IMG/VR virus record: IMGVR_UViG_3300048851_000207
Location: 1-46,284 of that record
Length of the DNA: 46,284 nt
Direction: 5' to 3' (one strand)
DNA from: a virus
Taxonomy: Duplodnaviria > Caudoviricetes
The notes under the pieces are model-generated. The model saw only the letters and a program-made list of their open reading frames with translations, had not been told where the DNA came from and searched no databases. Within the stretch, counting starts at the first letter, position 1, and every line of letters begins with the position of its first letter. Positions 2,802 through 35,805 of the stretch are shown here, one piece after another. Position numbers and translations under genes: made by a program.

Positions 2802-3083
2802 ATGTTGGAGCTGGTCTTGACACAAGAGGACGAAAACGGGTTTAGTGTGAAAAAATTCCTAGAAGATAATTTCCGAGACGTCGATGGCGTCTTGGGCCTT
2901 CTGGCGAAGCATACGCATGTGGAGCTGCCGAACCGGGAAACCGCGCGGCGCTGGTTCCAGAGAAATTCCATACCGGGCGACTGGGCGTTTCTTTTACTTT
3001 TTGCGCTCGAGCAGGAGAACGGCGAGCCAGTAGTGATTGCGCCGTATATCAAGGAGGACAATGCGCATGACATCTTCGCATAA
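2802..3083 (+). CDS. Cro-like transcriptional regulator
   Basis: Small ORF divergent from the repressor; PNRETARRWFQRNSIPGDW resembles a Cro/CII-type recognition helix; start may be downstream. Confidence 0.6.
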   Translation: MLELVLTQEDENGFSVKKFLEDNFRDVDGVLGLLAKHTHVELPNRETARRWFQRNSIPGDWAFLLLFALEQENGEPVVIAPYIKEDNAHDIFA

Positions 3084-3357
3084 CGGATCGTCGCTCAAAG
3101 AGCAGGAGATGCAGGCGTTTTGGCGATACCTGCGGGAAGCTCGATCGCTGTTCAAGCTGAAAGGCTTCTGCGACGAGCTCGATGAGTTTCGAGATGAAAT
3201 CGAGGTAATCCGACTTCATACAAACTGGCCGCGTTTGCAGCAGATGTGCGACGAGCTGTTGGCCCGTGAAGACTGGTTCGTCGATCCTTTCGACGACGTC
3301 GCAGCCGACGCTCCCGCCGAGCAGGAGGCCGCCGATCAGACGGTATTGGCCGGATGA
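3067..3357 (+). CDS. Hypothetical protein
   Basis: AGGAGG upstream of ATG 3067; overlaps both neighbours in the operon. Confidence 0.6.
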   Translation: MTSSHNGSSLKEQEMQAFWRYLREARSLFKLKGFCDELDEFRDEIEVIRLHTNWPRLQQMCDELLAREDWFVDPFDDVAADAPAEQEAADQTVLAG

Positions 3358-3785
3358 TCGAGATCGTCTTGCTCGGCGCCCCGATGGGAAAGGAAAGGGC
3401 GCGTTTCGTCAAGGCGACCGGCCGCACCTTCACTCCTGAACGAACGGTGAATTACGAAAGCCGCTTGGCACTCGCTGCACAGCACGCCATGGACGGCCGG
3501 CCTCTGTTTGACGGCCCTCTTTCAGTTGACGTCGTGGCCTATATGCCTGTTGCCGAGAGCAAGCCGCGGAAATGGAAGGCCGCCGCATTGGCCGGCGAGA
3601 TCCGCCCGACGAAAAAGCCGGATTGGGACAACTTCGGCAAGATCCTCGACGCGCTGAACCTGGTGGTATGGGCCGACGACGCGCAGATCGTCGAGGGTCG
3701 GGTGCAGAAGTTTTATAGCGAGAAGCCACGGATGGAGATCCGCGTACGGAACGTTAGCCAGCCGACAGGAGGCATCTTTGAGTGA
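3354..3785 (+). CDS. rusA: RusA-family Holliday junction resolvase
   Basis: KKPDWDNFGKILDALNLVVWADDAQIV matches the RusA catalytic motif. Confidence 0.92.
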   Translation: MIEIVLLGAPMGKERARFVKATGRTFTPERTVNYESRLALAAQHAMDGRPLFDGPLSVDVVAYMPVAESKPRKWKAAALAGEIRPTKKPDWDNFGKILDALNLVVWADDAQIVEGRVQKFYSEKPRMEIRVRNVSQPTGGIFE

Positions 3786-3954
3786 CAGCGATCCGAACCG
3801 TCGAATTGATCTCGCCTTGGCGTCGTTGCGCGAAGATGGCGATGTGCAGCTATATCTCACGGTCGGCGGCAAGTCCGAAATCTATTCGATATCCCGTTCT
3901 GCCGCGGCATCATTCGCGAGCAGAATAGTTAGATCTTTAGCGAAAAAGGCTTGA
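3778..3954 (+). CDS. Small hypothetical protein (58 aa, TTG start), not in ORF track
   Basis: AGGAGG precedes TTG 3778; MSDSDPNRRIDLALASLREDGDVQLYLTVGGKSEIYSISRSAAASFASRIVRSLAKKA fills the gap after rusA. Confidence 0.55.
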   Translation: MSDSDPNRRIDLALASLREDGDVQLYLTVGGKSEIYSISRSAAASFASRIVRSLAKKA

Positions 3955-4048
3955 CCAGCGTGTCTGAAGTGTAGGACATTGCGGCATACAAGTTCCGACA
4001 GACTGACACGGTTTTACTGGTTTTACGCAAGCAAGGAACACGGCGAAC

Positions 4049-5362
4049 ATGCCAACCCCTTTCCCACATCAGATAGAAGGCGCCCGTTGGCTCTCCAGCC
4101 AGCAGCACGCCTTGCTGGCAGACGAACCAAGGGTTGGGAAAACCGGCACGGCCATCATGGCCGCTGATGATCGCTTCGAAGATAGCATCTTGGTTGTCAC
4201 CACGGCCTCCGGTCGCCCGGTCTGGCGCCGCGCCTTCAAGCAATGGTCGACGTTCCAACGAGACAAGCTGCGGATCGTCGGCTGGCCGGAACTGACGAAC
4301 GGCACGACCCGCGCCGCGCTCCTATCGCAGACTTGGGATCGTCTCATCATCGATGAAGCCCACTACGGTAAGAACTTCGAAGCCAAGCGTACACAATCAG
4401 TCTACGGCACGGCGCTCGACGGCGGCAAGATCCTGCACCAATCGACGGCCCTTGTGGGCAAAGCTAAAGGCGTCTGGTGCCTGACTGGCACACCGCTGCC
4501 GCACGATCCGTCCGACATCTATCCCATGATGCGGGCGCTATGCCCGGAACGGCTTCTGGCCGATCCGGCGCAAGGATGGCCGGACGTCACGAAATACGAG
4601 GACTTCCGCGACCGCTATTGCAAGTGGCGTCCGAAAAAGTTGTCGGCTTGGCGCTCGATAGTCGTCATCATGGGCGGCAAGAACGAAGCCGAACTGAACG
4701 CCCGATTGAAGGGCTTCATTCTCCTGCGCACGCAGCAGAACGTCGGTATCCAGCCGCCGATATACGAAACGCTGCCGCTCGCCGTCTCGCCGCGAATGCT
4801 GCGCGAGATAGAGGGCGATCTGGTTGCAACCGAGATCCTGGAAGCGGCGAAGTCCGGCGACACGCGCAAGCTCGACATGCATCTTGGCCCGATCCGCCGG
4901 ATCACAGGCGAGATCAAGGCTCGCGCCGTCATCGATGCCGTCAAGGAAGAATTCGATAATGGGCTCGACAAGATCGTTCTGGCCTATTGGCACAAGGACG
5001 TCGGCCAGATCCTACGCGACGGCCTTGCTGAATATGGCGTGACCGGCATTGACGGCTCGTCGTCGCCCAGCCAGCGCGAACAGGCCGAACAAGCCTTTCT
5101 CAGCGACCCGAAATGTCGGGTTTTCCTTGGGCAGATCGAAGCGGCCGGCGAGGCCATCGATCTTTCCAGCGCGGCGACGCTCTGGTTCGTTGAAACGACC
5201 TTCTCGCCGAAATCCATGAAGCAGATGAGCCTCCGCATCACGAACCACAGCCAGACGCGACAAGCGATCGTTCGCGTATGCGTGCTGGAAGGATCGATCG
5301 ACGAGGCCCTGCAAGAAATCCTGCTCCGTTTATGGGCAGCGATCCGTGAAGTGCTCAAATAG
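4049..5362 (+). CDS. SNF2-like superfamily 2 helicase
   Basis: LLADEPRVGKT (motif I), LIIDEAH (motif II), LTGTP (motif III) and a C-terminal helicase domain. Confidence 0.9.
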   Translation: MPTPFPHQIEGARWLSSQQHALLADEPRVGKTGTAIMAADDRFEDSILVVTTASGRPVWRRAFKQWSTFQRDKLRIVGWPELTNGTTRAALLSQTWDRLIIDEAHYGKNFEAKRTQSVYGTALDGGKILHQSTALVGKAKGVWCLTGTPLPHDPSDIYPMMRALCPERLLADPAQGWPDVTKYEDFRDRYCKWRPKKLSAWRSIVVIMGGKNEAELNARLKGFILLRTQQNVGIQPPIYETLPLAVSPRMLREIEGDLVATEILEAAKSGDTRKLDMHLGPIRRITGEIKARAVIDAVKEEFDNGLDKIVLAYWHKDVGQILRDGLAEYGVTGIDGSSSPSQREQAEQAFLSDPKCRVFLGQIEAAGEAIDLSSAATLWFVETTFSPKSMKQMSLRITNHSQTRQAIVRVCVLEGSIDEALQEILLRLWAAIREVLK

Positions 5363-5373
5363 GAGATAGCACA

Positions 5374-6054
5374 GTGACAGTAAGAATTGAAATCTTGGGC
5401 GACGATGCCCGACACGCGCTGCGCGAGCTGAAGGGTCTATCCGACGGCCTGTTGTCATCGGTGGCGCTGCCTTCGCCGGCTCCCGCCGAAGCGCCGACCG
5501 ACGAAAGCGGCCAGTCTGCCGGGTTTGTCACGAACACCCCGCGCGCTGGCGAGAGTGAAGCCCAGACGGCTGTTCGCCGCGAACGCGGCAAGCCTGCGCC
5601 TGGCCGCGCCCGCCGGACCAAGGAAGAAATCGCCGAAGACGAAGCGGCCGACGCTGCCGATCAGGCAAACACGACCGACAGCTTCTCGTCGATCGACGCC
5701 GCGGTGAAACAGAGCATTTCAACCGGCGAAGAACGTGTCGATCCGGCAAACGTCGAAGCTCAAGACAAGGCCGACGAACAGGCCGAAGTCGAGCAGACCC
5801 GCAGCGAAGACAAGCCGCTGACGGTCGACGACGTCAAGGCCGTGATCAACCAGTACGTCGACAAGTACGGCCTGCCTGCCACGCAGGAAGACGGCCCTAA
5901 GATCTTCGTCGAAGCGCTCGGCGCCCCGCCAGAAGGCGAACCCTATTGGAAGCTGTCGCTACTGGGCGGTGCCTCGCAAGACCAGCTGAAGAAGACCGTC
6001 ACCATCTGGACGAAGGCCGTCGAGCTGAACCCGCTCAAGCGGACGGCGGTTTGA
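5374..6054 (+). CDS. Hypothetical acidic, low-complexity phage protein
   Basis: AGGAG RBS and GTG start; sits in the position usually upstream of the DUF2800/DUF2815/PolA cluster. Confidence 0.7.
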   Translation: MTVRIEILGDDARHALRELKGLSDGLLSSVALPSPAPAEAPTDESGQSAGFVTNTPRAGESEAQTAVRRERGKPAPGRARRTKEEIAEDEAADAADQANTTDSFSSIDAAVKQSISTGEERVDPANVEAQDKADEQAEVEQTRSEDKPLTVDDVKAVINQYVDKYGLPATQEDGPKIFVEALGAPPEGEPYWKLSLLGGASQDQLKKTVTIWTKAVELNPLKRTAV

Positions 6055-6560
6055 TCGTGGAGATAAAGCCTTACCCCCTTGACCCGAATTACGGCGCTTC
6101 GCCCGATGGACGGGTTTGGCGGATCGTTAAGGCTCGGTTCGGGCGGCCAGTGCCGCACGAAATGAAGCCGACGGTAGGGGCCAAGGGGTATCTCTATGTA
6201 GGGAACGGCAGTGGTAAGGGCCTGCGTACTGTTCGTGTACATCAGGTGATCGCTAGAACCTTCATCCCGAACCCTGAAAACCTGCCGGAAGTCGCCCATA
6301 ACAACGGCGTGAAAACCGATAACGCAGCTGCAAATCTGCGTTGGGACACAACGGCCGAAAACCAACACGATCGGCTTAGGCACGGAACCCATAACAGGGG
6401 CACCCGACAAACCAATCATAAACTGACAGAGGACTTGGTAACAAGTCTTCGCACTCGCCAGATATCTCCCGCAGAAGCGGCAGCTATATCCGGTTGTCAA
6501 GTTAGAACGGCGAGATGGGTAGCTAACGGAAAGGATTGGCCTCATGTCCAACCATTCTGA
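6051..6560 (+). CDS. HNH homing endonuclease
   Basis: VHQVIARTFIPNPENLPEVAHNNGVKTDNAAANLRW is an HNH_3 motif; start TTG 6051 or GTG 6057. Confidence 0.9.
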   Translation: MIVEIKPYPLDPNYGASPDGRVWRIVKARFGRPVPHEMKPTVGAKGYLYVGNGSGKGLRTVRVHQVIARTFIPNPENLPEVAHNNGVKTDNAAANLRWDTTAENQHDRLRHGTHNRGTRQTNHKLTEDLVTSLRTRQISPAEAAAISGCQVRTARWVANGKDWPHVQPF

Positions 6561-7857
6561 ACGCGATCACGCTACTTGGAGTGCGTCGTCAACGGACAGG
6601 AACTGGCAATGCAGCGGTGCGCTGGCCTTGACCATGGGCCTGCCTGAGACGACCAACGAGGCGGCCGACTGGGGCACTTGCTGCCACCAGATATCCGAGA
6701 AATGCTTGCGGCAGGGAACGCAGGCGTCGGAATACATCGGCACGATCGAGAAAGGCAAAAAGCACGAATTCGAAGTCGATGAAGAAATGGCCGAAACGGC
6801 CCAGGTCTACGTCGATTACGTCAGGCAGCAGACAATCGCAGCGGCTCCGAAAGGGACCAATCCGGCCAGTTTGCTGCAGATCGAACAGCGCTTTTCGCTC
6901 GCCGCGCTCAACCCGCCTTTCGAAGCGGGCGGCACGGGCGACGCCGTCATCTACCATCCGACCGAACGGCTTCTTGAAGTCGTCGATCTGAAGGGCGGGC
7001 GGGGCGTCGTGGTCGAAGCCAAGGGCAACCCGCAGCTGCGCACGTATGGCCTTGGCGCCATGCTGGCGAACCCGTCGCTGAAGGTCGACATGATCAAGGT
7101 GACGATCGTTCAGCCGCGGGCAGGGCATAAGGACGGCCGTATCAGGTCCGAAACTTTCCATGTCGCCGATCTGGTGGAATGGACGACGGATCTGATGGCA
7201 GCGATGAAGCGATCCGCTCAGGCTCTGGCAGACTACGACAAGGTCGGTCAGACTGTCAGTCACGCCGAATGGGATGCGGCGCATCTGGCCGCTGGCCCAT
7301 GGTGCAAATTTTGTAAGGCGGCGGGTTTCTGCCCGGCGCTAGAACAACGGGCGCTCGACGCGGCTGGTGTCTGGTTTGACGACCTCGACCAGCCGCGCAT
7401 ATCCAACGCGCCCGACACGCTTTCCCCGGAGCGTGCCTCGCAACTTCTCGACGCCGCCGACATGATCGGCGACTGGATCAATGCCGTGCGGGCCTACTGG
7501 CACGCAGAGGCAGAGAGCGGCGTCGAGATCCCGAACTATATCCTGGTGCCGAAAGAGGGCCGGGAGAAGTTCAACGACGACGCGTCGGCCAAACTGGCGG
7601 CGGCAAAGGCCGAAGCGGCCGGATTGCCCGCCGAGAAGGTTTGGAACGACCCGAAGCCCCGGACGCCGAAGCAGATCCGCGACGCTTTGATCAAGGCCAA
7701 GAAGGCCGCCGTCGCCGACGAGCTGAAGGAACTATCCGGTTCCGAAAGCAAGGGAACCAACCTGGTTCGCACCACGAAGACGACCCGCGCGGCGGTGACG
7801 CCGAGCGTTCACAAGCATCTGTCCAACTTGGACAGCCAACCCAATGTTTTCGACTGA
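6544..7857 (+). CDS. DUF2800 / Cas4-like PD-(D/E)XK exonuclease
   Basis: GTGD...VVDLKGGRG...NPQLRTYGLG nuclease motifs; an N-terminal Cys plus WCKFCKAAGFC suggest Fe-S ligands. Confidence 0.85.
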   Translation: MSNHSERDHATWSASSTDRNWQCSGALALTMGLPETTNEAADWGTCCHQISEKCLRQGTQASEYIGTIEKGKKHEFEVDEEMAETAQVYVDYVRQQTIAAAPKGTNPASLLQIEQRFSLAALNPPFEAGGTGDAVIYHPTERLLEVVDLKGGRGVVVEAKGNPQLRTYGLGAMLANPSLKVDMIKVTIVQPRAGHKDGRIRSETFHVADLVEWTTDLMAAMKRSAQALADYDKVGQTVSHAEWDAAHLAAGPWCKFCKAAGFCPALEQRALDAAGVWFDDLDQPRISNAPDTLSPERASQLLDAADMIGDWINAVRAYWHAEAESGVEIPNYILVPKEGREKFNDDASAKLAAAKAEAAGLPAEKVWNDPKPRTPKQIRDALIKAKKAAVADELKELSGSESKGTNLVRTTKTTRAAVTPSVHKHLSNLDSQPNVFD

Positions 7858-7869
7858 AAGGACATCGAA

Positions 7870-8505
7870 ATGGGAAGCAGAGCAGAAGACATCAAAACGC
7901 CCGTGAACATCGCCAGCTATACCCGCGATCTGTTTACCGCGCGTGAACGTGAAAACGGGACGAAGGGGTACGGCGTCACGTTCATCTTCGACAAGGAGCA
8001 GGATCTTTCGAAACTGCACCAAAACGCACTAGAGGCCGCCGAAGCGGAATGGCCGGGCAAGCCGGTTCGCGAATGGATCAAGGATGGCACAATCAAGTCG
8101 CCGTTCCTCGACGGTGACAGCAAGCAGGGCCGGGACCAGGAAGGCAACCAGCGGCCAGAACTGAAGGGCAAGACGTTTATCCGCTGCACATCAGGCGAAA
8201 ATTTCCCGCCCAAGGTGTTCGGTCGTAACGGCGTCAGCCGCATCACTGATCCGAGCGAAATCCCTTCCGGTTCCAAGACCCTGGGCGTCGTGAACGCCTT
8301 CGCTTGGGAGAACAAGAAGAACGGCAAAGGTATCTCGTTCGGCGTGTCGATCGTCCAGCTGCATACGAAGGCCGAAGGCGCTGCTGTTCTCGGCGGTTCC
8401 GGTAGCGGGCCTGACCCGGAAAAGTTCCTCGAAAAGCTGTCCGACGAGGGCGATGCTCCAGCCGAAACAAAATCCGGCGCAGGCGCGGGCGGACTTTTTG
8501 GATGA
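7870..8505 (+). CDS. Phage single-stranded DNA-binding protein (DUF2815, T7 gp2.5-like)
   Basis: SPFLDGD and NAFAWENKKNGKGISFGVSIVQL motifs; located between the exonuclease and polymerase. Confidence 0.8.
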   Translation: MGSRAEDIKTPVNIASYTRDLFTARERENGTKGYGVTFIFDKEQDLSKLHQNALEAAEAEWPGKPVREWIKDGTIKSPFLDGDSKQGRDQEGNQRPELKGKTFIRCTSGENFPPKVFGRNGVSRITDPSEIPSGSKTLGVVNAFAWENKKNGKGISFGVSIVQLHTKAEGAAVLGGSGSGPDPEKFLEKLSDEGDAPAETKSGAGAGGLFG

Positions 8506-8582: not shown

Positions 8583-8738
8583 ATGTGGTTCTGGATTTTC
8601 TGCATTCTGGCCGTTGGCGCCTTCATCGGGTTCTTCTACTCGGCGATGACCGGCAAGGCGACCAGGATGGCCTACTCGCTGGTCATGCTCATCGTATGGC
8701 TCGGCCTTGCTTCCTACATGGGAGGTTACATTGGCTGA
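8583..8738 (+). CDS. Small two-TM membrane protein (51 aa), not in ORF track
   Basis: MWFWIFCILAVGAFIGFFYSAMTGKATRMAYSLVMLIVWLGLASYMGGYIG; AAGGA upstream; stop overlaps the gapR start. Confidence 0.65.
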   Translation: MWFWIFCILAVGAFIGFFYSAMTGKATRMAYSLVMLIVWLGLASYMGGYIG

Positions 8739-9042
8739 CATCTTCGATCCTACCCAAATCGCGGGCGGCAAAAACCCGCCAACGTCCGACGGCCAGCCTC
8801 GCCCCGCCAATGACACCGGCAAGGAACTGGGCGGCTACCTCGATCGCATTGAAAGCCTCGAGGAAGACAAGGCTGGCATCGCCGACGATATCAAAGACAT
8901 CAAAGGAGAGATGAAGCAAAAAGGGTACGATATGAAAGTCGTCGCCGAAATGCTCAAGCTTCGGAAGATGGACAAGGCCACACGCGACGCATTTGAGGAC
9001 GTTCGCGACATCTATGGTCACGCTCTGGGGATCTTCGGATGA
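8731..9042 (+). CDS. gapR: GapR-like nucleoid-associated protein (DUF2312/UPF0335)
   Basis: LGGYLDRIESLEEDKAGIADDIKDIKGEMKQKGYDMKVVAEMLKLRKMD matches the GapR core; GGAGG before TTG 8731. Confidence 0.88.
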   Translation: MADIFDPTQIAGGKNPPTSDGQPRPANDTGKELGGYLDRIESLEEDKAGIADDIKDIKGEMKQKGYDMKVVAEMLKLRKMDKATRDAFEDVRDIYGHALGIFG

Positions 9043-9317
9043 GCAAGTTCATCAAGCTTTCCGGCTACGAACTGCCTGCCAAGGGCGAACACTACAAGAT
9101 CGTACCTGTGTGGGTGAACGTCGAGCTTATCGCGCATATGACGACATTCTCTGCCGTTATGTTCCGTGAGGAAAATGGGCGATACGCAGAAGAACGTATC
9201 CCCGCAACGTCAATCGCATTCGCGGCGGCGTTTGCCGATGAAATTGTCGGTGTTTCCGTATTGGAAACTCCTGACGCCATCATCGAAGCGATCGGCAAGT
9301 TGAGCGTCCACCAATGA
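9039..9317 (+). CDS. Hypothetical protein
   Basis: ATGA-coupled to both neighbours. Confidence 0.7.
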   Translation: MSKFIKLSGYELPAKGEHYKIVPVWVNVELIAHMTTFSAVMFREENGRYAEERIPATSIAFAAAFADEIVGVSVLETPDAIIEAIGKLSVHQ

Positions 9318-9532
9318 CACTCGACGATCTCATCAGGGAAACCGCCTCACAGGGCGGTTTCCGGCTCAACGTCTGGCCGGCCGCAGACGGCTACCAGGCC
9401 AATTTCTCGCGCGACGGCAATAGCTGGAGCGTCCAGACCCGGCCCGACGTCGTAGAGGCGATCCGGGCGGCTATTGAGCCACGTCCAGTCCAAGCACCAC
9501 AGCCGATCAGCACGGGCAGCATTTTCGACTAA
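9314..9532 (+). CDS. Hypothetical protein ending GSIFD
   Basis: ATGA-coupled ORF in the early/middle operon. Confidence 0.7.
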   Translation: MTLDDLIRETASQGGFRLNVWPAADGYQANFSRDGNSWSVQTRPDVVEAIRAAIEPRPVQAPQPISTGSIFD

Positions 9533-9572: not shown

Positions 9573-9686
9573 ATGAAGCGCGGGACTAACTTTGTCGAAG
9601 CGGCGGCCTTCCTGGTTCCGCTTTCATTCGTCGTCTGGGGGTTCGTCGCTCTCGCCGCTGCGGTTTTGCGGGGATGCGGACAATGA
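9573..9686 (+). CDS. Small single-TM protein (37 aa)
   Basis: AGGAG upstream of ATG 9573; MKRGTNFVEAAAFLVPLSFVVWGFVALAAAVLRGCGQ; ATGA overlap with the next gene. Confidence 0.55.
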   Translation: MKRGTNFVEAAAFLVPLSFVVWGFVALAAAVLRGCGQ

Positions 9687-10222
9687 GCGAGGAACGCTGG
9701 CTTCCTGTAGTTGGGTTCGAAGGTTTATACGAAGTTTCGGATCTGGGCCGGGTCCGTTCAGTTGACCGCTACGTTGATCTGATCGGCCGGTGGGGAACGA
9801 AAGAGCGCCGGTTCTATAGGGGTAAAATAAGGGCTTTCTGTTCCGGCGGAAGCAGCGACTATCTTATGGTCGTTCTATCGCGGAACAGTCACAAGACAAC
9901 ATTCACTGTCCACACCTTGGTTCTAGCCGCTTTTCTCGGTCCCTGTCCCGCAGGCATGGAAGGTCGTCACCTGAATTGCGACGCTCACGATAACCGTGCC
10001 GAAAACCTTGATTACGGCACGCGCTCCGTGAACCGAGAAGATAGCCGAATTGCCGGCACGCTCGCTGTCGGCGAACGGATAGCACAACACAAACTTACCG
10101 AAACTGAAGTCCTGCGAATACGAACGCTCCCCGGCCGTCACGATGATATCGCGGCGGCTTTCGGCGTGAGCCGCACGCAAATCAGCCGTATCAAACGGAA
10201 AGAGAACTGGCGTCATGTCTGA
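9683..10222 (+). CDS. NUMOD4-HNH homing endonuclease
   Basis: ERWLPVVGFEGLYEVSDLGRVRS (NUMOD4) plus VHTLVLAAFLGPCP...RHLNCDAHDNRAENL (HNH). Confidence 0.92.
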   Translation: MSEERWLPVVGFEGLYEVSDLGRVRSVDRYVDLIGRWGTKERRFYRGKIRAFCSGGSSDYLMVVLSRNSHKTTFTVHTLVLAAFLGPCPAGMEGRHLNCDAHDNRAENLDYGTRSVNREDSRIAGTLAVGERIAQHKLTETEVLRIRTLPGRHDDIAAAFGVSRTQISRIKRKENWRHV

Positions 10223-12449
10223 GGCGAGAATTGACTTCGAAACGCGTTCTGATGTCGATCTGAAGAAATGCGGGACCGGACCTTACTTTGCATCACCACA
10301 TTTTCGTGCGCTGGGCGCCAGCTACCGGATCGATGATGGGCTGCTGCGCGACTGGGAGCACGGCCAACCTTGCCCTGACGATCTACGTGAGCATATCGAA
10401 AGCGGCGGCTATATTCGCGCGTTCAACGCCGCTTTTGAGCGGCAGTGCTTCCAGGAGCTGCACAAGCGACACGGCTGGCCGCTGCCCGCGATTGACCGCT
10501 ATCGCTGCACGGCGGCCGAAGCGGCGGCCATGACATTGCCCCGCAGCCTGGACGGCGTCGGCGAGGCGCTAGGGCTAGAGATCCGCAAAGACAAAGAGGG
10601 CGCGCGCCTTATCCGCAAGTTTTCTATCCCACGCCGTCCGCGCAAGGACGAAGACCCTGACGGCGTTTACTGGAACGAACCGGAAGACCACCCCGAAGAT
10701 TACGCCCTGTTCATCAAGTACCGCCAGCAAGACGTACTGACAGAAGAAGCCGCCGCGCGCCGTATCCTGCCGCTCTCCGACGCGGAACAGGCCGTCTACA
10801 CGCTGAACGAAATCATCAACTCGCGCGGGATCCGCATCGATCGCCGTAGCGCAGTTGCAGCGCTACGACTGGCCGACAAGGCAAAAAAGGTTCTTGATCG
10901 AGAAATTAAGGTCGCCACCAACGGCTATGTAACGGCCTGCAGCCAGGCGACACGTTTGGTCGAATGGGTTCAAAACCAGGGCGTCGTTCTGGACAGCGCC
11001 GGCAAGGCCGAAATAACCGATCTGCTGGAATTCGATGATATACCCGACAACGTCCGGAAAGCCCTCGAGCTGCGCCAAGAGGCCGCCAAGACGTCTGTCG
11101 CGAAACTGCAAGCCATGCTGAACCGCGCAAGCGAGGACGGCCGCGTCCGCGGGACTTCTATGTATCATGGCGCCGGCACGGGTCGTTTCCAGAGCACGGG
11201 CGTGAACACGTCGAACCTGCCGCGTCCGCGTCGCGAATATGACGATGCGAAGCCGCGTACAGACGTCCTATTCGAAGCTTTCCGGCAGGAAGAACCGGAG
11301 CTGTTGCAGTTCCTGTACGGCCCGATGCTGGGCCGCCCGCTGCATTTGGTATCCGACGCGATCCGCGGCTTCATCTGGGCCGCGCCCGGTCACGATCTGA
11401 TGCAGGCCGATTATTCGGGTATCGAAGGCGCGGTCATTGCTTGGACAGCCGGCGAGGACTGGAAGGTTCAGGCGCTGTTCGACATCATCGCCGACCCGTC
11501 GCTGCCCGACATGTATCGCCGCACCGCAGCTGACATTCTCAACCTGACAACTGAGGTCGTAACGAAAAAACACTGGGCGCGACAAGCCGTAGGCAAAGTT
11601 TCAGAACTCAGCATGGGTTTCGGTGGAGGTGTGCCGGCCTTCTATTCCATGTCCCGAAACTACAACGTCAAACTGGATCCGCTCTATGCGCCGGTCTGGG
11701 AGAATACCGGCGAAGAACGCCGCGAGAAGGCAGTGAAGCGCTACGAGGGCCAAGCGAAGCGCGGATTGAGCGCGACGGCTGTTCTATCGCGTGAGGCGTG
11801 GCTGGCATGCGAGATCATCAAGCTTGGCTGGCGCGCTTCCAATCCGGCGATCGCCCAATCCTGGAAAGATCTGGAAACGGCAGTCCGCGAGGCTGTCGAA
11901 ACTCCAGGATCGATCACCCGCGCGGCCAAGGTCGACTATATCGTCAAGCATGGCTTCCTGCTGGCGCGTCTGCCGTCCGGCCGCTGCCTGACTTATGCGT
12001 CGCCGCGCCTGAAGGATCAGGTCTGGGCCAAGGTCAAGCTGTCGGACGGGACATGGTCGGATAGCGAGGTCATGGATCGGGATGCTGCCGAACGTGGCGA
12101 GCGTTTGGGCGTCATCAAGATCGAAGGCAAGACGTCGGCCAAGGTGACGTTTCTGGGCGTCAACGGCAAGACAAAGCGCTGGGAACGCTCCGGGCTATAC
12201 GGCGGGCTGATAGCCGAGAACAACACGCAGGCCATTGCTCGCGACCTGTTGGTGAACGGGATGCTGAAGGCGGAGGCCGCCGGCTATCCGATTATTGCGA
12301 CCGTTTACGACGAAATCATCACCGAAGTTCCGCGCGGCTTCGGATCGGTCGGCACGTTCGAAAAGCTGATCTGTGAGCTGCCGGCATGGGCGAATGGAAT
12401 GCCACTTACTGCCGGCGGCTGGAGAGGGAAACGCTACCGCAAGGATTGA
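10215..12449 (+). CDS. Family A DNA polymerase with 3'-5' exonuclease domain
   Basis: IDFETRS (Exo I), FNAAFER (Exo II), YHGAGTGRF, motif A ADYSGIE, motif B RQAVGKVSELSMGFG, motif C TVYDE. Confidence 0.93.
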   Translation: MSEARIDFETRSDVDLKKCGTGPYFASPHFRALGASYRIDDGLLRDWEHGQPCPDDLREHIESGGYIRAFNAAFERQCFQELHKRHGWPLPAIDRYRCTAAEAAAMTLPRSLDGVGEALGLEIRKDKEGARLIRKFSIPRRPRKDEDPDGVYWNEPEDHPEDYALFIKYRQQDVLTEEAAARRILPLSDAEQAVYTLNEIINSRGIRIDRRSAVAALRLADKAKKVLDREIKVATNGYVTACSQATRLVEWVQNQGVVLDSAGKAEITDLLEFDDIPDNVRKALELRQEAAKTSVAKLQAMLNRASEDGRVRGTSMYHGAGTGRFQSTGVNTSNLPRPRREYDDAKPRTDVLFEAFRQEEPELLQFLYGPMLGRPLHLVSDAIRGFIWAAPGHDLMQADYSGIEGAVIAWTAGEDWKVQALFDIIADPSLPDMYRRTAADILNLTTEVVTKKHWARQAVGKVSELSMGFGGGVPAFYSMSRNYNVKLDPLYAPVWENTGEERREKAVKRYEGQAKRGLSATAVLSREAWLACEIIKLGWRASNPAIAQSWKDLETAVREAVETPGSITRAAKVDYIVKHGFLLARLPSGRCLTYASPRLKDQVWAKVKLSDGTWSDSEVMDRDAAERGERLGVIKIEGKTSAKVTFLGVNGKTKRWERSGLYGGLIAENNTQAIARDLLVNGMLKAEAAGYPIIATVYDEIITEVPRGFGSVGTFEKLICELPAWANGMPLTAGGWRGKRYRKD

Positions 12450-12879: not shown

Positions 12880-13128
12880 GTGACACGAAAAAAGAGAAAG
12901 CAAGCCGCGCAGCCCCGCGCAGAGCAGACCCGGCCGACGATCTCGCTGCGTCTCAGCCGGCCGATGCTGGCGATCGTCGACGGCACGGCGCGACGTCTGG
13001 GCGTCGACCGCACCGGCCTGATCTCGCTGGTGCTGGTCGAATATCTGCAGGAACGCGGCGAAGACGGCATCGCGGCGCTGGCAGCAAAGGGGGCTCGCGA
13101 TGACCGAACCATCGATCTCTTTGCCTGA
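12880..13128 (+). CDS. Ribbon-helix-helix (CopG-like) regulator, start corrected to GTG 12880
   Basis: TISLRLSRPMLAIVDGTARRLGVDRTGLISLVLVEYL is an RHH pattern; GGAG upstream. Confidence 0.75.
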   Translation: MTRKKRKQAAQPRAEQTRPTISLRLSRPMLAIVDGTARRLGVDRTGLISLVLVEYLQERGEDGIAALAAKGARDDRTIDLFA

Positions 13129-13348
13129 ACGCTTCGACGCCCTGCGCGCCGAACACCCCGACCTGATCATCAATCTCTACGCCATGACGCCGCGTGGCGT
13201 CGTCACGCTGGAGATCATCACCCCGGACGGCCAGAACTACAGCTGGACGGCAGAGACTGCCGCGGCGGCCTATGCGCTGGCCTTTCCCGAAAACGCTGTC
13301 GTCGCCGCGCCTGTGATGGCGGAAATGGCGACCGACATATTCGACTGA
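13100..13348 (+). CDS. Hypothetical protein ending TDIFD
   Basis: GGGGG upstream of ATG; codon usage like flanking phage genes. Confidence 0.7.
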   Translation: MTEPSISLPERFDALRAEHPDLIINLYAMTPRGVVTLEIITPDGQNYSWTAETAAAAYALAFPENAVVAAPVMAEMATDIFD

Positions 13349-15995: not shown

Positions 15996-18139
15996 AAGAC
16001 ACGGCCAATTTCTTCGCCCGGTTCGCGCAGCTGGGCTATACCCGTCTCGTCCCCATCATCCCGCCCAAGGCGCCGATCTCGGAAGGCTCGTCGCTGTTCA
16101 AGCGTATCGGCACGCCCCAGGACGGCCGCGGCAAGACGCCAGGCATCAAGGGCCAGAACGGGCTTTGGTTCTCGTTCGATTGGGTGCCCTATGAGGCCGA
16201 CGAGCGGGACTATCATCGCTGGCACTCCATGGGCGCCGGCGTCGGCATCAAGACCGGCAACGGCCTGATTGCCATCGATGCGGACACGAAGAACGAAGCG
16301 TTCGCGAAGATCATCAAGCAGACGCTGGATGAGCTGATTGGCCCAACCCCGATCAGGATCGGCAATTATCCGAAGGCTCTCTATCTGGTGCGCGTGGTCG
16401 GGCCTGTTCAGTATCAGCGCATCGACTTCGGCGAGAACATCGCAGCCGATGGCAAGCCGCCGAACTACGAGCGCGTCGAGATCTTGAGCGACGGGCGTCA
16501 GTTCGTCGCCCAGGGCATCCACCCAAAGACCGGCGAGCCCTATAACTGGATCAAGCCGATCGTACCGCTCGACGAGCTGCCGCAGATCACGCCGCAGCAA
16601 GTCACGCAACTCCTGAACACGCTGCGCGAGCGTCTTCCTGCCGCCAGCACGATCCACAAGGAAGGCGGCGACGCGATCATCTCTCAAGCCAGTCTCAGGG
16701 GCAATCCTGACATGGTGCGCAAGGCCGTCGCCTTGATCCCCAACACGTCGGCCTTGTTCCCGTCGCGCGAAAGCTACCGCGACATGGGCTATGCGATCCG
16801 GGCCGCCGTCGAGAACGAGCACGACGCGTTCGATATCTTCGCGGACTGGTGCGACCGATGGGTGGAGGGCGAGAACGACCCTGGCGTCGTGGCGGCCGAC
16901 TGGTCACGCATGAAACCGCCGTATCGCCGCGGCGCGCAGTGGCTATACGAGCTCGCCGAGACGCACGGTGCCGGCGGGAATTTCTCGATCGGCGAAGTCT
17001 GGTTTGAGGATCTGGAAAATCCTGACAACCCGTTTGCCCAAATTTCCCTAAATGAGAAAAAATCTGCGACCGCGTCCGACACGTTCGATGTGCTGTCGCT
17101 GGAAGACCTCGAGAGCAGGCCGCCCGCCGAATGGCTGCTGGCGCGCCACGTTCCACAAAAGAGTGTCGGGTTCGTCTACAGCACGCCGGGCGCCGGCAAG
17201 ACATTCCTGGTGCTGGATATGGCGCTGCACATCGCTGACGGGCGCCAGCAATGGCACGGTGACGAGATCAAGGCCATCGAGAACGCGGGCGTGCTCTATA
17301 TCGCGTCGGAAGGCTCCTATGGCTTCAGAAACCGTGTCGCGGCTTGGAAGCGCAAGCACGGCAATTCGCCGGCCTTGTCCCAGCGCTTTCGCATGATCGA
17401 ACAAACTATCAACTTCATGAGCCCGGATGATATCGGCAAGCTGTTGCGCACCGTCAAGGCAATCCAAGCGGACGGGACGCGGCTGGCGCTGGTCGTGGTC
17501 GATACCGTGTCGCGTGCCATGCCCGGCGCTGACGAGAACCTGCAAAAGGACATGACGCGGTTTGTGGCGGCCTGTGACGCGGTGCGCGATGCGATTGGCG
17601 GTGCCGTCATCGGTGTCCACCATGCGGGCAAGGCTGGCGATATGCGCGGCTCGACGGTCCTGCTGGGGGCAGGGGATTTCGTCTTCAGGCTCGAGCGTAA
17701 GAAGGGCGCATCCATCGGTCATCTTGCTTGCGAAAAGCAAAAGGACGGGCCTGACGGCTGGGATGAGCCGTACCGGTTCGATCTGATATCACTGAAGGAT
17801 GGCGAGACATCGCTATGCGTGGCGCGTGCAGACCTACACGTCGGCCCTGTTACAGAGTTGACGCCCGATGTGGCTGGGCGGGTTCTGGACGCCATGAGGT
17901 CGGCATGGGATGCGGGCGAGCCGTGGTCGAAAGCGCCACAGTCGAAAGAGCGATACGCGGTTCGGCGGATGGTGGCGGATCACGGATTTGATGCCGAAAG
18001 CGCGGATGAATTGCTGAAGGTTTGGGAAGGTTCGGGCATGATCGTAACGGAGCTGCAGTCTCGAAAGACGCGAATTAGCGGCTATAAGGTGGCGGGAGCC
18101 ATCGAACAATCTGTCCAAAGTGACGGCATTTTCGCCTGA
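15992..18139 (+). CDS. Primase-polymerase / PriCT-2 / RecA-type (AAA_25) helicase fusion
   Basis: N-terminal prim-pol (GVGIKTG, IAIDAD, GRQFVAQGIHP), PriCT-2-like middle, Walker A STPGAGKT, Walker B VVVDT, and HHAGK...RGST. Confidence 0.9.
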   Translation: MKDTANFFARFAQLGYTRLVPIIPPKAPISEGSSLFKRIGTPQDGRGKTPGIKGQNGLWFSFDWVPYEADERDYHRWHSMGAGVGIKTGNGLIAIDADTKNEAFAKIIKQTLDELIGPTPIRIGNYPKALYLVRVVGPVQYQRIDFGENIAADGKPPNYERVEILSDGRQFVAQGIHPKTGEPYNWIKPIVPLDELPQITPQQVTQLLNTLRERLPAASTIHKEGGDAIISQASLRGNPDMVRKAVALIPNTSALFPSRESYRDMGYAIRAAVENEHDAFDIFADWCDRWVEGENDPGVVAADWSRMKPPYRRGAQWLYELAETHGAGGNFSIGEVWFEDLENPDNPFAQISLNEKKSATASDTFDVLSLEDLESRPPAEWLLARHVPQKSVGFVYSTPGAGKTFLVLDMALHIADGRQQWHGDEIKAIENAGVLYIASEGSYGFRNRVAAWKRKHGNSPALSQRFRMIEQTINFMSPDDIGKLLRTVKAIQADGTRLALVVVDTVSRAMPGADENLQKDMTRFVAACDAVRDAIGGAVIGVHHAGKAGDMRGSTVLLGAGDFVFRLERKKGASIGHLACEKQKDGPDGWDEPYRFDLISLKDGETSLCVARADLHVGPVTELTPDVAGRVLDAMRSAWDAGEPWSKAPQSKERYAVRRMVADHGFDAESADELLKVWEGSGMIVTELQSRKTRISGYKVAGAIEQSVQSDGIFA

Positions 18140-19355: not shown

Positions 19356-19811
19356 ATGCCACTCAAGAACGGTAATCTCACTCATACGGAACGGCGCATC
19401 GCTGAGACTATGGCAGTGACGGGCGATGCGCAGCTCACAGCCACGAAGCTGGGCTTATCTGGGCCTGGCGTTTACAAGGCGCTGCAGCGGCCCGCCGTTG
19501 ATGCACACCGCCACAAAGCGGCACAAGCAGCGCTCGATAACGAGTTGCTGCCGCTGGCGATCAACGCGCATAGGCGCATCTTGTCGGATCCGCGCACGCC
19601 GGCAGGGGCCGTTGTTCAGGCCGTAAAGCTCGCCTATGACCGCACGCTGGGCTCTGAGGACGCCGGCAAGACCAAGGAACCACACGAAATGACGCCGGAA
19701 GAGCTGGCGCAGGCGATCGGCCTGCTCGAGCGTGTTGCGGCTGATCGTGCCAAGGTCATCACGCCCTCGACGATCGTCGATGAAGCGCCGGAACCGAGCA
19801 TTTTCGACTGA
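19356..19811 (+). CDS. terS: Terminase small subunit (putative)
   Basis: N-terminal HTH LTHTERRIAETMAVTGDAQLTATKLGLSGPGVYKALQRPAV followed by helical oligomerisation segment; first late-strand gene. Confidence 0.7.
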   Translation: MPLKNGNLTHTERRIAETMAVTGDAQLTATKLGLSGPGVYKALQRPAVDAHRHKAAQAALDNELLPLAINAHRRILSDPRTPAGAVVQAVKLAYDRTLGSEDAGKTKEPHEMTPEELAQAIGLLERVAADRAKVITPSTIVDEAPEPSIFD

Positions 19812-27427: not shown

Positions 27428-30101
27428 TCCGAAGACAGGCAAGCGCTTCGATTGGGAAGCCGAACAGGCGGCAGCAAAGGCCACCGATACGGATCTGGCC
27501 GATCTGCAGCAACGTCTTGGCCTGCTGAAGCGCCAGCAAATGGCGCTGACCGCCCGCGAGCGGTTCATGCCGTTTATCAAGTTCACCTCGCCGGACCCTG
27601 AAGACCCCAACGACGTCGAGAAGTCGAAGTATCAGAACGCCAAGCATCACGACGCCATTGCGCGCGTGATCGAGGAAGTCGAGAAGGGCGAGATCCCGTT
27701 TCTGATCCTGACCATGCCGCCGCGGCACGGAAAACAGCTGGATCACGATACGCCAGTTCCGACGCCTGTTGGATATGTCAGGCATGGCGATTTGCAACCG
27801 GGCGATACGGTATTCGGGCCCGATGGAAAGCCCGTTCGCGTTATAGCGGTGAGCGACCAGCAGCCGCAGGACGTTGAAATTGAGTTTACAAACGGCGAGA
27901 TTATTAGGTGCCACGAAAACCACGAATGGACCGTACGCGATCGTCGCTGCTACCCCCCGCGGACGCAAACACTCGAAACGAAACAGATGGAGACTGACGT
28001 TTGGATCGGATCGCCTGGCGTTCGAGGCGGTCGTGCGCGCTGGCAGCTGCCCGACGCAGAATGTTTGCAATATCCAACCGCACTTCAAATTTTGCATCCT
28101 TACACGCTGGGTGTTTGGCTCGGCGACGGTGCGACAACGAAAGCGCATATAACTGGCGTTGATATGGAGGTGTTCGACGCAGTTTCCGAATGTAGCGGTT
28201 TTCGAGAAACCGGACGTTGGGTGCATAAAGATACTGGAGTGACAACGGTCGCTTATTCGGGGCCTCGCCCGAATGTGAGGGGGCAGTTATCAGAAGCTCT
28301 TTTCGCGCTAGGGCTGCACGGTCGGAAATTTATCCCCTCACAGTATCTTCGTGCCAGTAAGGAACAGCGCCTGCAGCTTCTTGCGGGTTTGATTGATACC
28401 GACGGCCATGTTGAACGGGAGACAGGGCGTTGCCGGTTCGTTACCGGCGACCCGAAACTTGCCGACGACGTTTTCGAGTTGGCTGCGTCTCTTGGTTTTC
28501 GCCCCTACCTCACGCAACAGGAACCAGCGCTGTCAACGTCGGGCATACAGGGACGTAAGGTTGTTTTCACTGTAGGCTTCCAGCCGACCGAAACTATTCC
28601 GGTTCGCTTGGAGCGGAAGCGTATCGTTAAGATTGCGCAGCGTCGCCGCGTGGCAGTCAAAGCTATTCGCCGAGTGGCGCCTACAATGGGCCGCTGCATT
28701 CAAGTTGACCGCCCCGATGGCCTTTACATCGTCGGGCGACGGCATGTGGTCACACACAATAGCGAGCAAGTTTCCCGGCGACTGCCGGCCTGGTTCATCG
28801 GGCGTCACCCGGAACAGAATGTTGTCGTCGCGACCTATAACGACGATTTCGCCTCAGACTTTGGCAAAGACGTCCGAAACATCATCTATTCCGCCCAGTT
28901 CAAGCAGGCATTCCCCGGCGTCCGGCTGCAGAAGGGTGGCGGCGCGTCGGATCGCATGCAGACCGTGCAAGGCGGCCTGATGTCCTTTGTCGGCCGCGGC
29001 GGTTCGCTGACGGGCCGCGGCGCGCATCTTCTGATCATCGACGACCTGATCAAGGACGATAAGGAAGCACAGAGCCAAGCGATCCGCGATCAGGCGTGGA
29101 ACTGGTTCACGAAGGTTGCCATGTCTCGCCGCATGGGTAAGAAGCTGGTGATTATGACGTTCACTCGCTGGCATGCCGACGACCCGATCGGGCGTCTGAC
29201 GGATCCCGAAAACCCCTGCTATAACGAGCGCCTCGCGAAGAAGATCAAGATCATCAATCTGCCGGCGATCGCCGAAGATGACGATCCGCTGGGCCGCGCA
29301 GTCGGCGAACCCCTATGGGCCGACGGCCCCGACAAATTCGATCTGGACTTCTTGGAAGAACAGCAGAGCCTCGATCCGCTCGGCTTCGCGGCGCTTTATC
29401 AGCAGCGCCCCAGCTTGCTCGACGGCGATATGTTCAAGCGCGAGGACATCAAGTTCTACGGTCCTGGAACCGGCGTCACGCTGCCCGATGACTTGCGGAT
29501 CTACGCATCGTCCGACCACGCTGTCGGCACAGGCCAGCGCAACGACCCTTCCTGCTTCCTGAAGATCGGGATCGACAAGAACAGCGACATCTACCTTCTG
29601 GAATGCGTCTGGAAGAAGATGAAGACCGATATGGCCGTCGAGGCGATGCTTGCGATGGGCCGTGGCAACATGAAGCCGATCCTGTGGTGGGCGGAAAAGG
29701 GGCACATCAGCAAATCGATTGGCCCTTTTCTGCGCAAGCGCATGTTGGAAACGGGAACGTATATCAACATACGCGAAGTGACGCCCGTGGCCGACAAGGC
29801 CCAACGCGCCCAGTCAATCGCCGCGCGTGTTGCGATGGGCAAGGTCTACTTCCCGAAGAATGAGATCTGGACGGAAAAGGCGATTAACGAATTGATGGCC
29901 TTCCCGAACGGTGTTCATGACGACTTTTGCGATGCGCTCGCTTGGATCGGGCTTGGCTTGCAAAGCCAGTTCGGACCTAGTAAATCTAGGGCCGCCGAGA
30001 AAGCGAAGCAACAGCCAGCCTACGGCACTCTCGATTGGGTCAAACTTGGCGACAGGTGGGCCAACGACAAGAAGGCCCGTATCGCGGCTGGAGGCTTCTA
30101 A
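27408..30101 (+). CDS. terL: Terminase large subunit containing an intein
   Basis: Split Walker A MPPRHGK|S, Walker B LLIIDD, TRWH motif, and nuclease domain FPNGVHDDFCDA. Confidence 0.95.
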   Translation: MSNHRINPKTGKRFDWEAEQAAAKATDTDLADLQQRLGLLKRQQMALTARERFMPFIKFTSPDPEDPNDVEKSKYQNAKHHDAIARVIEEVEKGEIPFLILTMPPRHGKQLDHDTPVPTPVGYVRHGDLQPGDTVFGPDGKPVRVIAVSDQQPQDVEIEFTNGEIIRCHENHEWTVRDRRCYPPRTQTLETKQMETDVWIGSPGVRGGRARWQLPDAECLQYPTALQILHPYTLGVWLGDGATTKAHITGVDMEVFDAVSECSGFRETGRWVHKDTGVTTVAYSGPRPNVRGQLSEALFALGLHGRKFIPSQYLRASKEQRLQLLAGLIDTDGHVERETGRCRFVTGDPKLADDVFELAASLGFRPYLTQQEPALSTSGIQGRKVVFTVGFQPTETIPVRLERKRIVKIAQRRRVAVKAIRRVAPTMGRCIQVDRPDGLYIVGRRHVVTHNSEQVSRRLPAWFIGRHPEQNVVVATYNDDFASDFGKDVRNIIYSAQFKQAFPGVRLQKGGGASDRMQTVQGGLMSFVGRGGSLTGRGAHLLIIDDLIKDDKEAQSQAIRDQAWNWFTKVAMSRRMGKKLVIMTFTRWHADDPIGRLTDPENPCYNERLAKKIKIINLPAIAEDDDPLGRAVGEPLWADGPDKFDLDFLEEQQSLDPLGFAALYQQRPSLLDGDMFKREDIKFYGPGTGVTLPDDLRIYASSDHAVGTGQRNDPSCFLKIGIDKNSDIYLLECVWKKMKTDMAVEAMLAMGRGNMKPILWWAEKGHISKSIGPFLRKRMLETGTYINIREVTPVADKAQRAQSIAARVAMGKVYFPKNEIWTEKAINELMAFPNGVHDDFCDALAWIGLGLQSQFGPSKSRAAEKAKQQPAYGTLDWVKLGDRWANDKKARIAAGGF
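27735..28760 (+). mobile_element. Class 3 intein (342 aa) with LAGLIDADG homing endonuclease in the TerL P-loop
   Basis: Begins QLDHDTPVPTP and ends VVTHN|S. WCT triplet: HEW in block B, GRCIQV in block F, THN in block G. Endonuclease motifs LGVWLGDG and LAGLIDTDG. Confidence 0.9.
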
Positions 30102-32281: not shown

Positions 32282-32290
32282 TACAAGGAG

Positions 32291-33640: not shown

Positions 33641-33659
33641 GAACGAATAGGAAGTTCAC

Positions 33660-34742: not shown

Positions 34743-34756
34743 GGCGTAGGCCGACA

Positions 34757-34781
34757 CGGGGCGCTTCGGCGCCCCGCTTTC
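34757..34781 (+). terminator. Hairpin/terminator after the capsid gene
   Basis: CGGGGCGC-TTCG-GCGCCCCG with a UUCG tetraloop, then CTTT. Confidence 0.65.
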
Positions 34782-34802
34782 CCATCAATTGGAGGCTCTA
34801 TC

Positions 34803-35135
34803 ATGGGCGCTTTAGCACTTAAGAAATTCACTCTCGCCGCGGCTGTTGCCAACGCAGCTACGGTGACGACCGCATATCCGACCGGCTTCGTGCAAGCTGA
34901 TCTTCTCGGCACGACCGGCGGTGTTCTCACCGTCGCCAACGATGTCTGGAAGCAGGGCGCGAGCGGCTTCACCGTCGTTTTCGGCGCGTCCGACATCACG
35001 ATCACCAACACCAGCGGCGTTACGTGGGCGGCCGGTGCTGAAGTCGTCGTGTCCTTCGGGCGTGTCGACATCAACGGCTCTTACAATCTCACCTTCCCGA
35101 AGAAGACCCAGGACAAGGTCAATTCGCTGGCCTGA
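34803..35135 (+). CDS. Putative capsid decoration protein
   Basis: 110-aa Ala/Thr/Val-rich beta protein after the capsid gene; GGAGG RBS. Confidence 0.6.
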   Translation: MGALALKKFTLAAAVANAATVTTAYPTGFVQADLLGTTGGVLTVANDVWKQGASGFTVVFGASDITITNTSGVTWAAGAEVVVSFGRVDINGSYNLTFPKKTQDKVNSLA

Positions 35136-35193
35136 TGAGTGACGCCGGCTTCGGTCGGCGCCGCACGTCGCAGTTCTCAAGAGGAAACAGATC

Positions 35194-35805
35194 ATGGAAA
35201 CCGCAAATATTCTTCTCAATGTCGGGGGCGACGGAACGACCATCGTTCCGAAGGAGAACGTCACGCCCGCTGAAGTCGCGGTTCTCCGCGTTCTGCACGG
35301 CGACGACAGCGTCACCGATATCCAGGTGCTGGAAGGCGAGGCCGTCAACGAGTTTGGCAAGGCGCGTACCCATCGCCAGGAAATTGCCCGTCTGACCGAA
35401 GTCTACGGCAAGAACCAGCCGGAAGGCGGCCGCAGCGCGCCCGCCGTGCAGACGCTGTTCCCTGGCGCCGCTGCTCGCGTCTTCGAAAGCTTCGAAGAAC
35501 TCGAGCTGGACGAAAGCGCATTCAAGCCGACGGAACGCGACAGCGAAAAGCCTTCGACAAAGAAGGCCGCTGCAGCGCAGACGACCGACGAAGGCGGCGA
35601 CGGCTTGGATAAGCAGACCGTCACCGATCTGAAGACGCTTGCTGATACCGAAAATGTCGATCTCGATGGTGCGACGAAGAAGGCCGACATCGTCGCCAAG
35701 ATCCGCGCTTCCCGCGAAACGACCGCTGTTGATCAGGACGGCGAAGGCTACAGCGACGGCATCGAGGACATGAACGATCGCCAGTCCGGCAGCGTCTTCG
35801 AATAA
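35194..35805 (+). CDS. Hypothetical protein with HeH/Rho-N-like domain
   Basis: LDKQTVTDLKTLADTENVDLDGATKKADIVAKI is a helix-extension-helix motif; ends GSVFE. Confidence 0.7.
   Translation: METANILLNVGGDGTTIVPKENVTPAEVAVLRVLHGDDSVTDIQVLEGEAVNEFGKARTHRQEIARLTEVYGKNQPEGGRSAPAVQTLFPGAAARVFESFEELELDESAFKPTERDSEKPSTKKAAAAQTTDEGGDGLDKQTVTDLKTLADTENVDLDGATKKADIVAKIRASRETTAVDQDGEGYSDGIEDMNDRQSGSVFE

Follow-up and report, generated by a model that had tools for sequence, protein, structure and literature searches.

A shared penultimate-Phe tail on DNA-handling proteins of temperate relatives of Rhizobium phage RHph_N65

Short hydrophobic or aromatic peptides at the very C-terminus of proteins act as docking signals in several described systems. 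The C-terminal tip of bacterial SSB, the protein that binds single-stranded DNA, is a short hydrophobic tail with a terminal Phe that serves as a hub signal in DNA metabolism, and the HbYX motif of proteasome activators has the register hydrophobic-aromatic-any residue-COOH. In phage T7, the acidic, Phe-ending tail of gp4 docks on gp5, and the C-terminal Phe of the T7 tail has reportedly been treated in work that PMC12339929 cites. The tail of T7 gp2.5-type SSB engages both polymerase and primase-helicase (PMC5686142 and PMC10359462, each in part), and in phages T4 and RB69 the proteins gp43, gp33 and gp55 carry clamp-binding C-terminal epitopes for gp45 (PMC2988020, in part). Here we describe a four-residue C-terminal tail, in the following called the tag, that is shared by unrelated proteins of the virus record IMGVR_UViG_3300048851_000207. 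The whole stretch of 46,284 nucleotides, referred to as the window, is a complete-looking 46-kb record of a temperate relative of Rhizobium phage RHph_N65. The nearest named relatives by polymerase identity were Rhizobium phage RHph_N65 (61%) and EBPR siphovirus 2 (59%), and prophages of the group were located in Aminobacter and Nitratireductor genomes.

A sequence-only reading of the window had pointed out tails of the form [GSDN][IVL]F[DEAG]-stop on 11 proteins, and all 11 open reading frames ended as claimed. This strict motif ended 11 of 54 called genes, a denominator that is approximate because we used a crude codon-model caller built for this analysis, as are all gene totals below; the expectation from internal frequency was 0.03 (0.33 for the loose motif [IVL]F-x-stop). 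The strict motif was defined after it had been noticed in the window, and it recurred in 18 other genomes. All 19 near-complete genomes of the RHph_N65-related group that formed our comparison set, window included, were tagged (206 of 1201 genes in 43 families, with 8-14 genes per genome), so roughly one protein in six carried the tag across the group, mostly those that handle DNA. The claim that Phe is always penultimate also proved correct: among the 18 genomes of Phe type (1134 genes; genome G003 left out), [IVLA]F was followed by exactly one residue in 181 genes, by none in 8 and by two in 1, against a chance expectation of about 11 genes per offset. The residue preceding the hydrophobic position was G, D, S or N in 174 of 188 tags, and the last residue was G, D, A or E in 171, including Asp or Glu in 58. 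The sequence-only reading had further proposed a comparison with the host; the strict tag ended none of 361 genes in 400 kb of one 5.1-Mb Aminobacter genome. The carriers in the window are listed below with the position of the tag, the gene in brackets and the occurrence among orthologues.

3069..3083, plus strand: tag DIFA-stop of the protein at the Cro position (2817-3083; no profile match); tagged in 5/10 orthologues
3771..3785, plus strand: tag GIFE-stop of the RusA resolvase (3354-3785); 17/17 orthologues (16 F, 1 L)
7843..7857, plus strand: tag NVFD-stop of the DUF2800 exonuclease (6544-7857); of 19 orthologues 1 F-type and 5 L-type
8491..8505, plus strand: tag GLFG-stop of the Enc34/gp2.5-type SSB (7870-8505); 19/19 (18 F, 1 L)
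9028..9042, plus strand: tag GIFG-stop of the GapR-like protein (8731-9042); 19/19
9518..9532, plus strand: tag SIFD-stop of a 72-residue open reading frame of unknown function (9314-9532); 12/12
13114..13128, plus strand: tag DLFA-stop of the RHH-family protein (12880-13128); 7/7
13334..13348, plus strand: tag DIFD-stop of an 82-residue open reading frame of unknown function (13100-13348); gene present in 19/19 genomes, tagged in 19/19
18125..18139, plus strand: tag GIFA-stop of the Prim-Pol/AAA_25 primase-helicase (15992-18139); 18/18
19797..19811, plus strand: tag SIFD-stop of the terminase small subunit, TerS (19356-19811); 19/19 (16 F, 3 L/M)
35791..35805, plus strand: tag SVFE-stop of a head-operon protein with an acidic linker (35194-35805); 19/19 in a looser form (10 F, 9 L/M)
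46039..46053, plus strand: possible twelfth tag, the Tyr variant GLYG-stop of the last virion-operon gene (45298-46053; no profile match)

Profile searches of 56 window proteins against PHROGs and Pfam recovered an integrase, a repressor, RusA, an SNF2 helicase, a DUF2800 exonuclease, an Enc34/gp2.5-type SSB, a GapR-like protein, a family A polymerase, a primase-helicase, terminase, portal, capsid and endolysin. Among the names given to carriers from sequence, those of RusA, exonuclease, SSB, GapR and primase-helicase were thereby supported, and 'Cro-like' had no match. The TerS label stood through a family alignment only (PDB 7joq, E 7.8e-8; Pfam Terminase_2 in 4 of 13 members) and the RHH label through relatives only, and for 'HeH' there were only weak PHROG matches. 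The reading frame at 13100 was without Pfam, PDB-sequence or Atlas family match. Core carriers in the group were SSB, GapR, RusA, the 13100 frame, TerS, primase-helicase, the 9314 frame and RHH, with the head-operon protein as a looser member. Conservation of the tail in orthologues, another point suggested by the sequence-only reading, was seen for RusA: in the best 120 of 572 homologues, the ends were hydrophobic-F-x in 113, hydrophobic-[LM]-x in 6 and neither in 1, and the linker before the tag varied from 8 to 48 residues. Among accessory tagged families, 9 of 29 representatives (one per family) had a Pfam match, and all of these act on nucleic acids (methylases, a Mom-family protein, a 3'-5' exonuclease, RHH, HNH, RusA and a helicase fragment). 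Annotatable carriers were nucleic-acid-acting proteins only, in agreement with the earlier statement that carriers with an assignable function act on DNA.

The tag is selected as a peptide. The TTC fraction of Phe codons was 0.84 in tags and 0.82 in the background, and tagged and untagged genes were alike in their stop codons and in how they overlap the following gene, so that the signal lies at the protein level, as had been supposed from the varied codons of the window. A feature of DNA or RNA with the peptide as by-product, such as translational coupling, a copied 3' cassette or GC bias, would fit the observations that most last codons begin with G, that GC content tracks I versus V, that one tag-coding stretch is locally duplicated and that Ile codons are AT-richer in tags than in other gene ends (ATT plus ATA 0.62 vs 0.30). 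Besides the background Phe codons and the equal overlap classes, however, in-frame gene-end matches numbered 165 against 68 elsewhere (six frames, 858 kb), codons were unshared within genomes and the agreement of spelling described below survived GC stratification. We consider this explanation very improbable and largely refuted. A recent origin of the tails may account for the AT-rich Ile codons. Ideas of a UUCG loop and of coupling through ribosome-binding sites were rejected.

Unrelated proteins of one genome share a spelling of the tag, which bears out the notion of a genome-wide label. The hydrophobic position and Phe are spelled IF in the window, RHph_N65 and G017 (D-I-F-G), VF in EBPR siphovirus 2, G011 and G012, AF or PF in G015, G018 and L164, LF in L167, VL in G003 and as a mixture of VL and VF in L171. 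Among 267 tags, not counting those of SSB, head protein and exonuclease, agreement between families at the two positions was 0.63 within genomes, compared to 0.30 +/- 0.014 after shuffling within families, and the observed agreement was reached in 0 of 1000 shuffles. When shuffling was confined to GC terciles or to exonuclease clades and three near-duplicate genomes were dropped (247 tags), concordance was 0.64 against 0.32-0.38; GC content as the sole cause of these dialects was rejected on this basis. The GC trend was also broken by G012, which is low in GC yet has 10/11 V, and by G017, which is high in GC yet has only I or L. Gene conversion was ruled out as a source of dialects, since synonymous codons for identical residues agreed no more within genomes (0.33) than between them (0.30) and were thus unshared.

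A re-spelling was found in G003, in which 9/9 counted tags had switched to V-L-x and new tags had been added behind old ones. Its SSB has the former GGLFG as an internal segment followed by ASGGSALD, and its GapR reads IFS and then VLD. The window exonuclease has likewise gained NVFD; the stretch before it aligns with the HFSVLD-type terminus seen in orthologues. Appending new tags behind old ones is what a single reader demanding a free end would predict. Judged by these sequence patterns, the tail is a selected, terminal and genome-coordinated C-terminal peptide on DNA-handling proteins.

Compared with the systems introduced above, the closest likeness is to the T4 and RB69 epitopes. Common to both would be a short, hydrophobic peptide at the C-terminus, often acidic, that follows a linker of variable length, is carried by unrelated proteins, is interchangeable and is directed to one hub (PMC2988020, in part), and the hydrophobic epitope on a variable linker across unrelated proteins is the T4-type feature that is present here. 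In contrast to the three proteins of T4 and RB69, carriers number 8-14 in each genome and belong to 43 families in all; the peptide has four residues in a fixed terminal register, and its spelling shifts genome-wide. No sliding clamp or clamp loader was matched among the 56 window proteins in PHROGs and Pfam, many of which were without any match, and as no clamp gene was found the window does not belong to the T4 type. Like T7, the window combines in one genome a T7-type SSB and a primase-helicase with aromatic tails and a family A polymerase that is present and untagged. It differs from T7 in that Phe is penultimate (181 genes vs 8 with terminal Phe, 11 expected) and not terminal as in T7 tails, in that the tail is only mildly acidic, and in that terminase, resolvase, GapR, methylases and regulators carry it as well. 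The bacterial SSB tip is the inverse arrangement: there one tail serves many pockets, whereas here many tails would share one presumed pocket. The register hydrophobic-aromatic-x-COOH is that of HbYX, implying recognition of the carboxylate, but the carriers are not protease activators and the window is without a proteasome-like gene (PHROGs, Pfam; hosts not searched). In the open-licence literature we found no case of an HbYX-type motif in phages.

In the group genomes the F tag was never on the polymerase, a 226-residue protein, the SNF2 helicase, integrase, large terminase, portal, scaffold or capsid. The earlier statement that portal, capsid, tail and lysis proteins lack the tail agreed with the result for portal, scaffold, major capsid and large terminase (tagged in 0/19 genomes). 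As a refinement, the last virion-operon gene, with its possible Tyr variant, ends hydrophobic-[YFW]-small in 16/18 genomes and stands outside the dialect, and outside the group the large terminase (TerL) is tagged in Ralstonia and Manatee Spring phages. Conserved ends of another kind, probably structural, were seen on group integrases (window 965-2068 and relatives), which mostly end L-E-A-A-E, and on SNF2 helicases, which usually end E-V-L-x. The replication module also contains two free-standing HNH endonuclease genes (5946-6560 and 9674-10222), both untagged.

A shared degron or adaptor signal, by which one protease would clear DNA-acting lytic proteins, for example upon the choice of lysogeny, could make use of a free C-terminus on a flexible linker gained by extension. 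Leaky production of the carriers in a lysogen would presumably do harm, and a host- or phage-specific adaptor could produce dialects. A terminal Asp or Glu usually protects against ClpX, FtsH and Prc, though, and such an end is present on 58/188 tags. Furthermore, repressor, integrase and polymerase are untagged, no protease profile was matched in the window (PHROGs, Pfam), and none of the 361 host genes bears the tag, which makes this explanation improbable. Ubiquitin-like conjugation was rejected by reasoning, Asp and Glu ends being common. Still less probable in our view is a cargo or compartment label, by which proteins would be loaded into the prohead for ejection or would gather in a replication or packaging body by an aromatic sticker. 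The head-operon protein tagged in 19/19 genomes and the aromatic-penultimate end of the last virion-operon gene speak for it, and methylases would seem to benefit from early delivery. TerS is tagged although it is not normally packaged, EBPR siphovirus 2 has 11/81 genes tagged yet shows no match to the window head genes (partial record), and a sticker would function without a set spacing from the carboxylate.

We favor, with slightly less than even confidence, the reading that the tail serves for docking in the manner of the SSB tail tip and is read by one phage replication protein. Small-hydrophobic-Phe-x-COOH tails would dock DNA-handling phage proteins, one at a time, in a single pocket that might grip both Phe and the terminal carboxylate. 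This pocket would belong to a replication protein that the phage itself encodes, as prophages differ in spelling even where the DnaN pocket segments of their hosts are identical and the type of tag ignores host class, and the clients would gather on replicating phage DNA. The tag may imitate the tip of the phage's own T7-type SSB tail. New tags are gained by lengthening the end of a protein and sit on linkers that vary in length, and an altered pocket would cause all client tails to be re-spelled. The phage would thereby acquire a clamp-like tool belt while lacking a clamp of its own, with priming, coating of single-stranded DNA, junction resolution, methylation, supercoil sensing (GapR) and initiation of packaging aimed at phage DNA. 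Three untagged proteins are candidate readers:

10215..12449, plus strand: family A DNA polymerase, tagged in 0/19; candidate by T7 precedent
5374..6054, plus strand: 226-residue protein of no known family, tagged in 0/18
4049..5362, plus strand: SNF2-like helicase, F tag in 0/19, usual end E-V-L-x

By analogy to T7, the polymerase could be the reader, which we regard as unlikely; the block of helicase and 226-residue protein, with slightly better covariation than the polymerase, seems a little less doubtful. For the 226-residue protein, a long low-confidence linker and a confident helical C-terminal domain at about 151-218 were predicted, a scaffold-like build. It was without a PDB structure match at E <= 0.001 and without Pfam, PDB-sequence or Atlas family.

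The sequence-only reading had also named the host beta-clamp as a possible hub. Tagged proteins would then dock by a shortened clamp motif on subsite I of host DnaN and ride host clamps on phage DNA. The small-hydrophobic-Phe core resembles the [SD]LF of QL[SD]LF, the clients (resolvase, methylases, nucleases, a transcription factor) suit a clamp tool belt (PMC9690074, in part), and phage Mu offers a parallel, as Mor works with DLF alone and MuC ends QPDLF (PMC12867686, in part). RHH tails fit especially well (QIDLFA, QVDLFQ, QPDLFA), several RHH orthologues ending Q-x-D-L-F-x, and a universal host pocket would account for F-x tags in phages of both alpha- and betaproteobacteria. In contrast to QL[SD]LF, Gln is not enriched four places before Phe (14/299 tags, background 3.7%) and is present in some RHH tails only, I, V or A more often stands in place of L ([SD]LF 16 vs [SD][IV]F 108 among the 299 tags), and a strict single residue follows Phe, for which no clamp requirement is known. 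Aminobacter and Nitratireductor do not differ in the DnaN segments that we take to form the pocket, yet their prophages spell IF and VF, so the dialects do not track the host clamp sequence. In addition, 33/36 polymerases lack a clamp-like motif, and the tag is missing from unrelated phages of that host class. The suggestion thus lost ground for most carriers and kept it for RHH, whose tails look like true clamp motifs; for this reason the host clamp is still a real rival, if a rather unlikely one. RHH might bind the clamp and the remaining tags another partner.

Several findings weigh against docking on one phage-encoded reader. The fit of RHH tails to the clamp motif is one. Covariation screens (Mantel, G003-specific changes, column splits) singled out no reader, and their top columns follow ancestry. 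Spelling did not follow polymerase distance (Mantel r -0.09 and 0.03), and helicase, 226-residue protein, exonuclease and SSB tracked spelling weakly (r 0.15-0.19, p 0.01-0.05 uncorrected), while head-operon genes did so as well or better (r 0.23-0.33, 17 genomes); all of these correlations are confounded by shared ancestry. Polymerase trees were incongruent with exonuclease and SSB trees, and covariation with the polymerase is also confounded by gene exchange. TerS and the head protein are made late and have no known link to the polymerase, and the SSB tail stays L-F in most dialects. GC content and the choice between I and V are correlated (rho -0.52, p 0.005), so mutation may account for part of the dialect. 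Finally, the shared F tag was missing in phages that bear the same module, namely G009 (0/53), six prophage regions (0-1 each) and ctvy9321 (1/55), hence the module does not need the tag.

Four unrelated alphaproteobacterial phages had hydrophobic-F-x ends on 0/61, 0/84, 1/91 and 0/53 genes (first 50 kb for three), and GapR of unrelated alphaproteobacterial phages ends without the tag. When 401 + 401 alphaproteobacterial genomes were searched, only G008 was a tagged prophage among the six regions read. EBPR siphovirus 2 has replication module and tags in common with the window. About 600-850 records overall had a match to this module. Two Ralstonia phages that share the module, DU_RP_II and C22 (34-36% polymerase identity), have an F-x tag on SSB, on both terminase subunits (TerS and TerL) and on a small protein of the head region, as has Manatee Spring phage ct8d5349. 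Bordetella phage BPP-1 (L140) showed another end, [DG]-L-[VI], on 6/48 called genes, with 0.06 expected for a pattern that was picked after looking:

BPP-1 genes at 18009, 25734, 29758, 34130, 35559 and 39043: [DG]-L-[VI] carriers bbp15, TerS, methylase, exonuclease, SSB and bbp45

Caulobacter phage RapA (L142) had D-[LQ]-V on 4/52 genes, with F-R-D-L-V on TerS and gp011 and an acidic D-Q-V on gp015 and gp031, and an alphaproteobacterial BPP-1-like prophage had D-[LI]-V-like ends. SSB was tagged in every tagged lineage but RapA, whose SSB was not identified. In these sequences, the type of tag follows phage lineage across host classes. Slightly more tentative than the docking proposal itself is the reading that phages with PolA, Enc34-SSB and DUF2800 run a private, lineage-specific address code read by one phage-encoded pocket, with F-x and the BPP-1 D/G-L-V as two alphabets of one undescribed system. 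New genes would then join the replication-packaging machine by end extension, and a pocket mutation would lead to the re-spelling of a dozen unrelated genes.

Some further ends and window features were noted. Distant relatives (L011-L013, L014, L175-L182) have acidic Trp tails (G-D-D-W-G, D-E-W-G-G) on SSB and primase-sized genes, and another group in this set has S-I-F-G on SSB together with G-I-L-[DE] ends on the exonuclease. Four adjacent small genes at L016:17369-18500 end K-G-G-E-A or similar, probably as shared ends overlapping ribosome-binding sites. In the window, a 75-nucleotide direct repeat, 81% identical (13303-13377 and 13548-13622), spans the tag of the 13100 frame and flanks an ASCH/DUF3850 gene, which looks like an insertion scar; the second copy encodes TDIFD without a stop. 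Directly after the primase-helicase gene lies an 18-nucleotide repeat in three copies (18160-18256), a possible origin or operator. The large terminase (27408-30101) has 897 residues, compared to about 555 in relatives, with Hom_end and LAGLIDADG matches, and likely contains an intein, as likely does the L164 polymerase (L164:11347 onward), which has a long insertion near window position 467. Genes on the minus strand encode a Lar-like restriction alleviation protein (12434-12784), a KleA-like protein (18960-19184) and a glycosyltransferase-like product (24495-25532).

The expectation that such a tag had not been described before agreed with our search, which found no prior description in open-licence papers (supplements not covered); subscription phage genome papers could mention it. 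The system could be tested in the cultured phage RHph_N65, with BPP-1 offering a second alphabet. If the proposal is true, a 46-kb phage would organize a sixth of its proteome via one short peptide and one reader, and this would represent a rare natural case of one-to-many coevolution in which a dozen ligands are re-spelled per genome. Many hypothetical proteins would be marked as parts of one machine, and the tag would suggest how terminase, resolvase and methylases target phage rather than host DNA.

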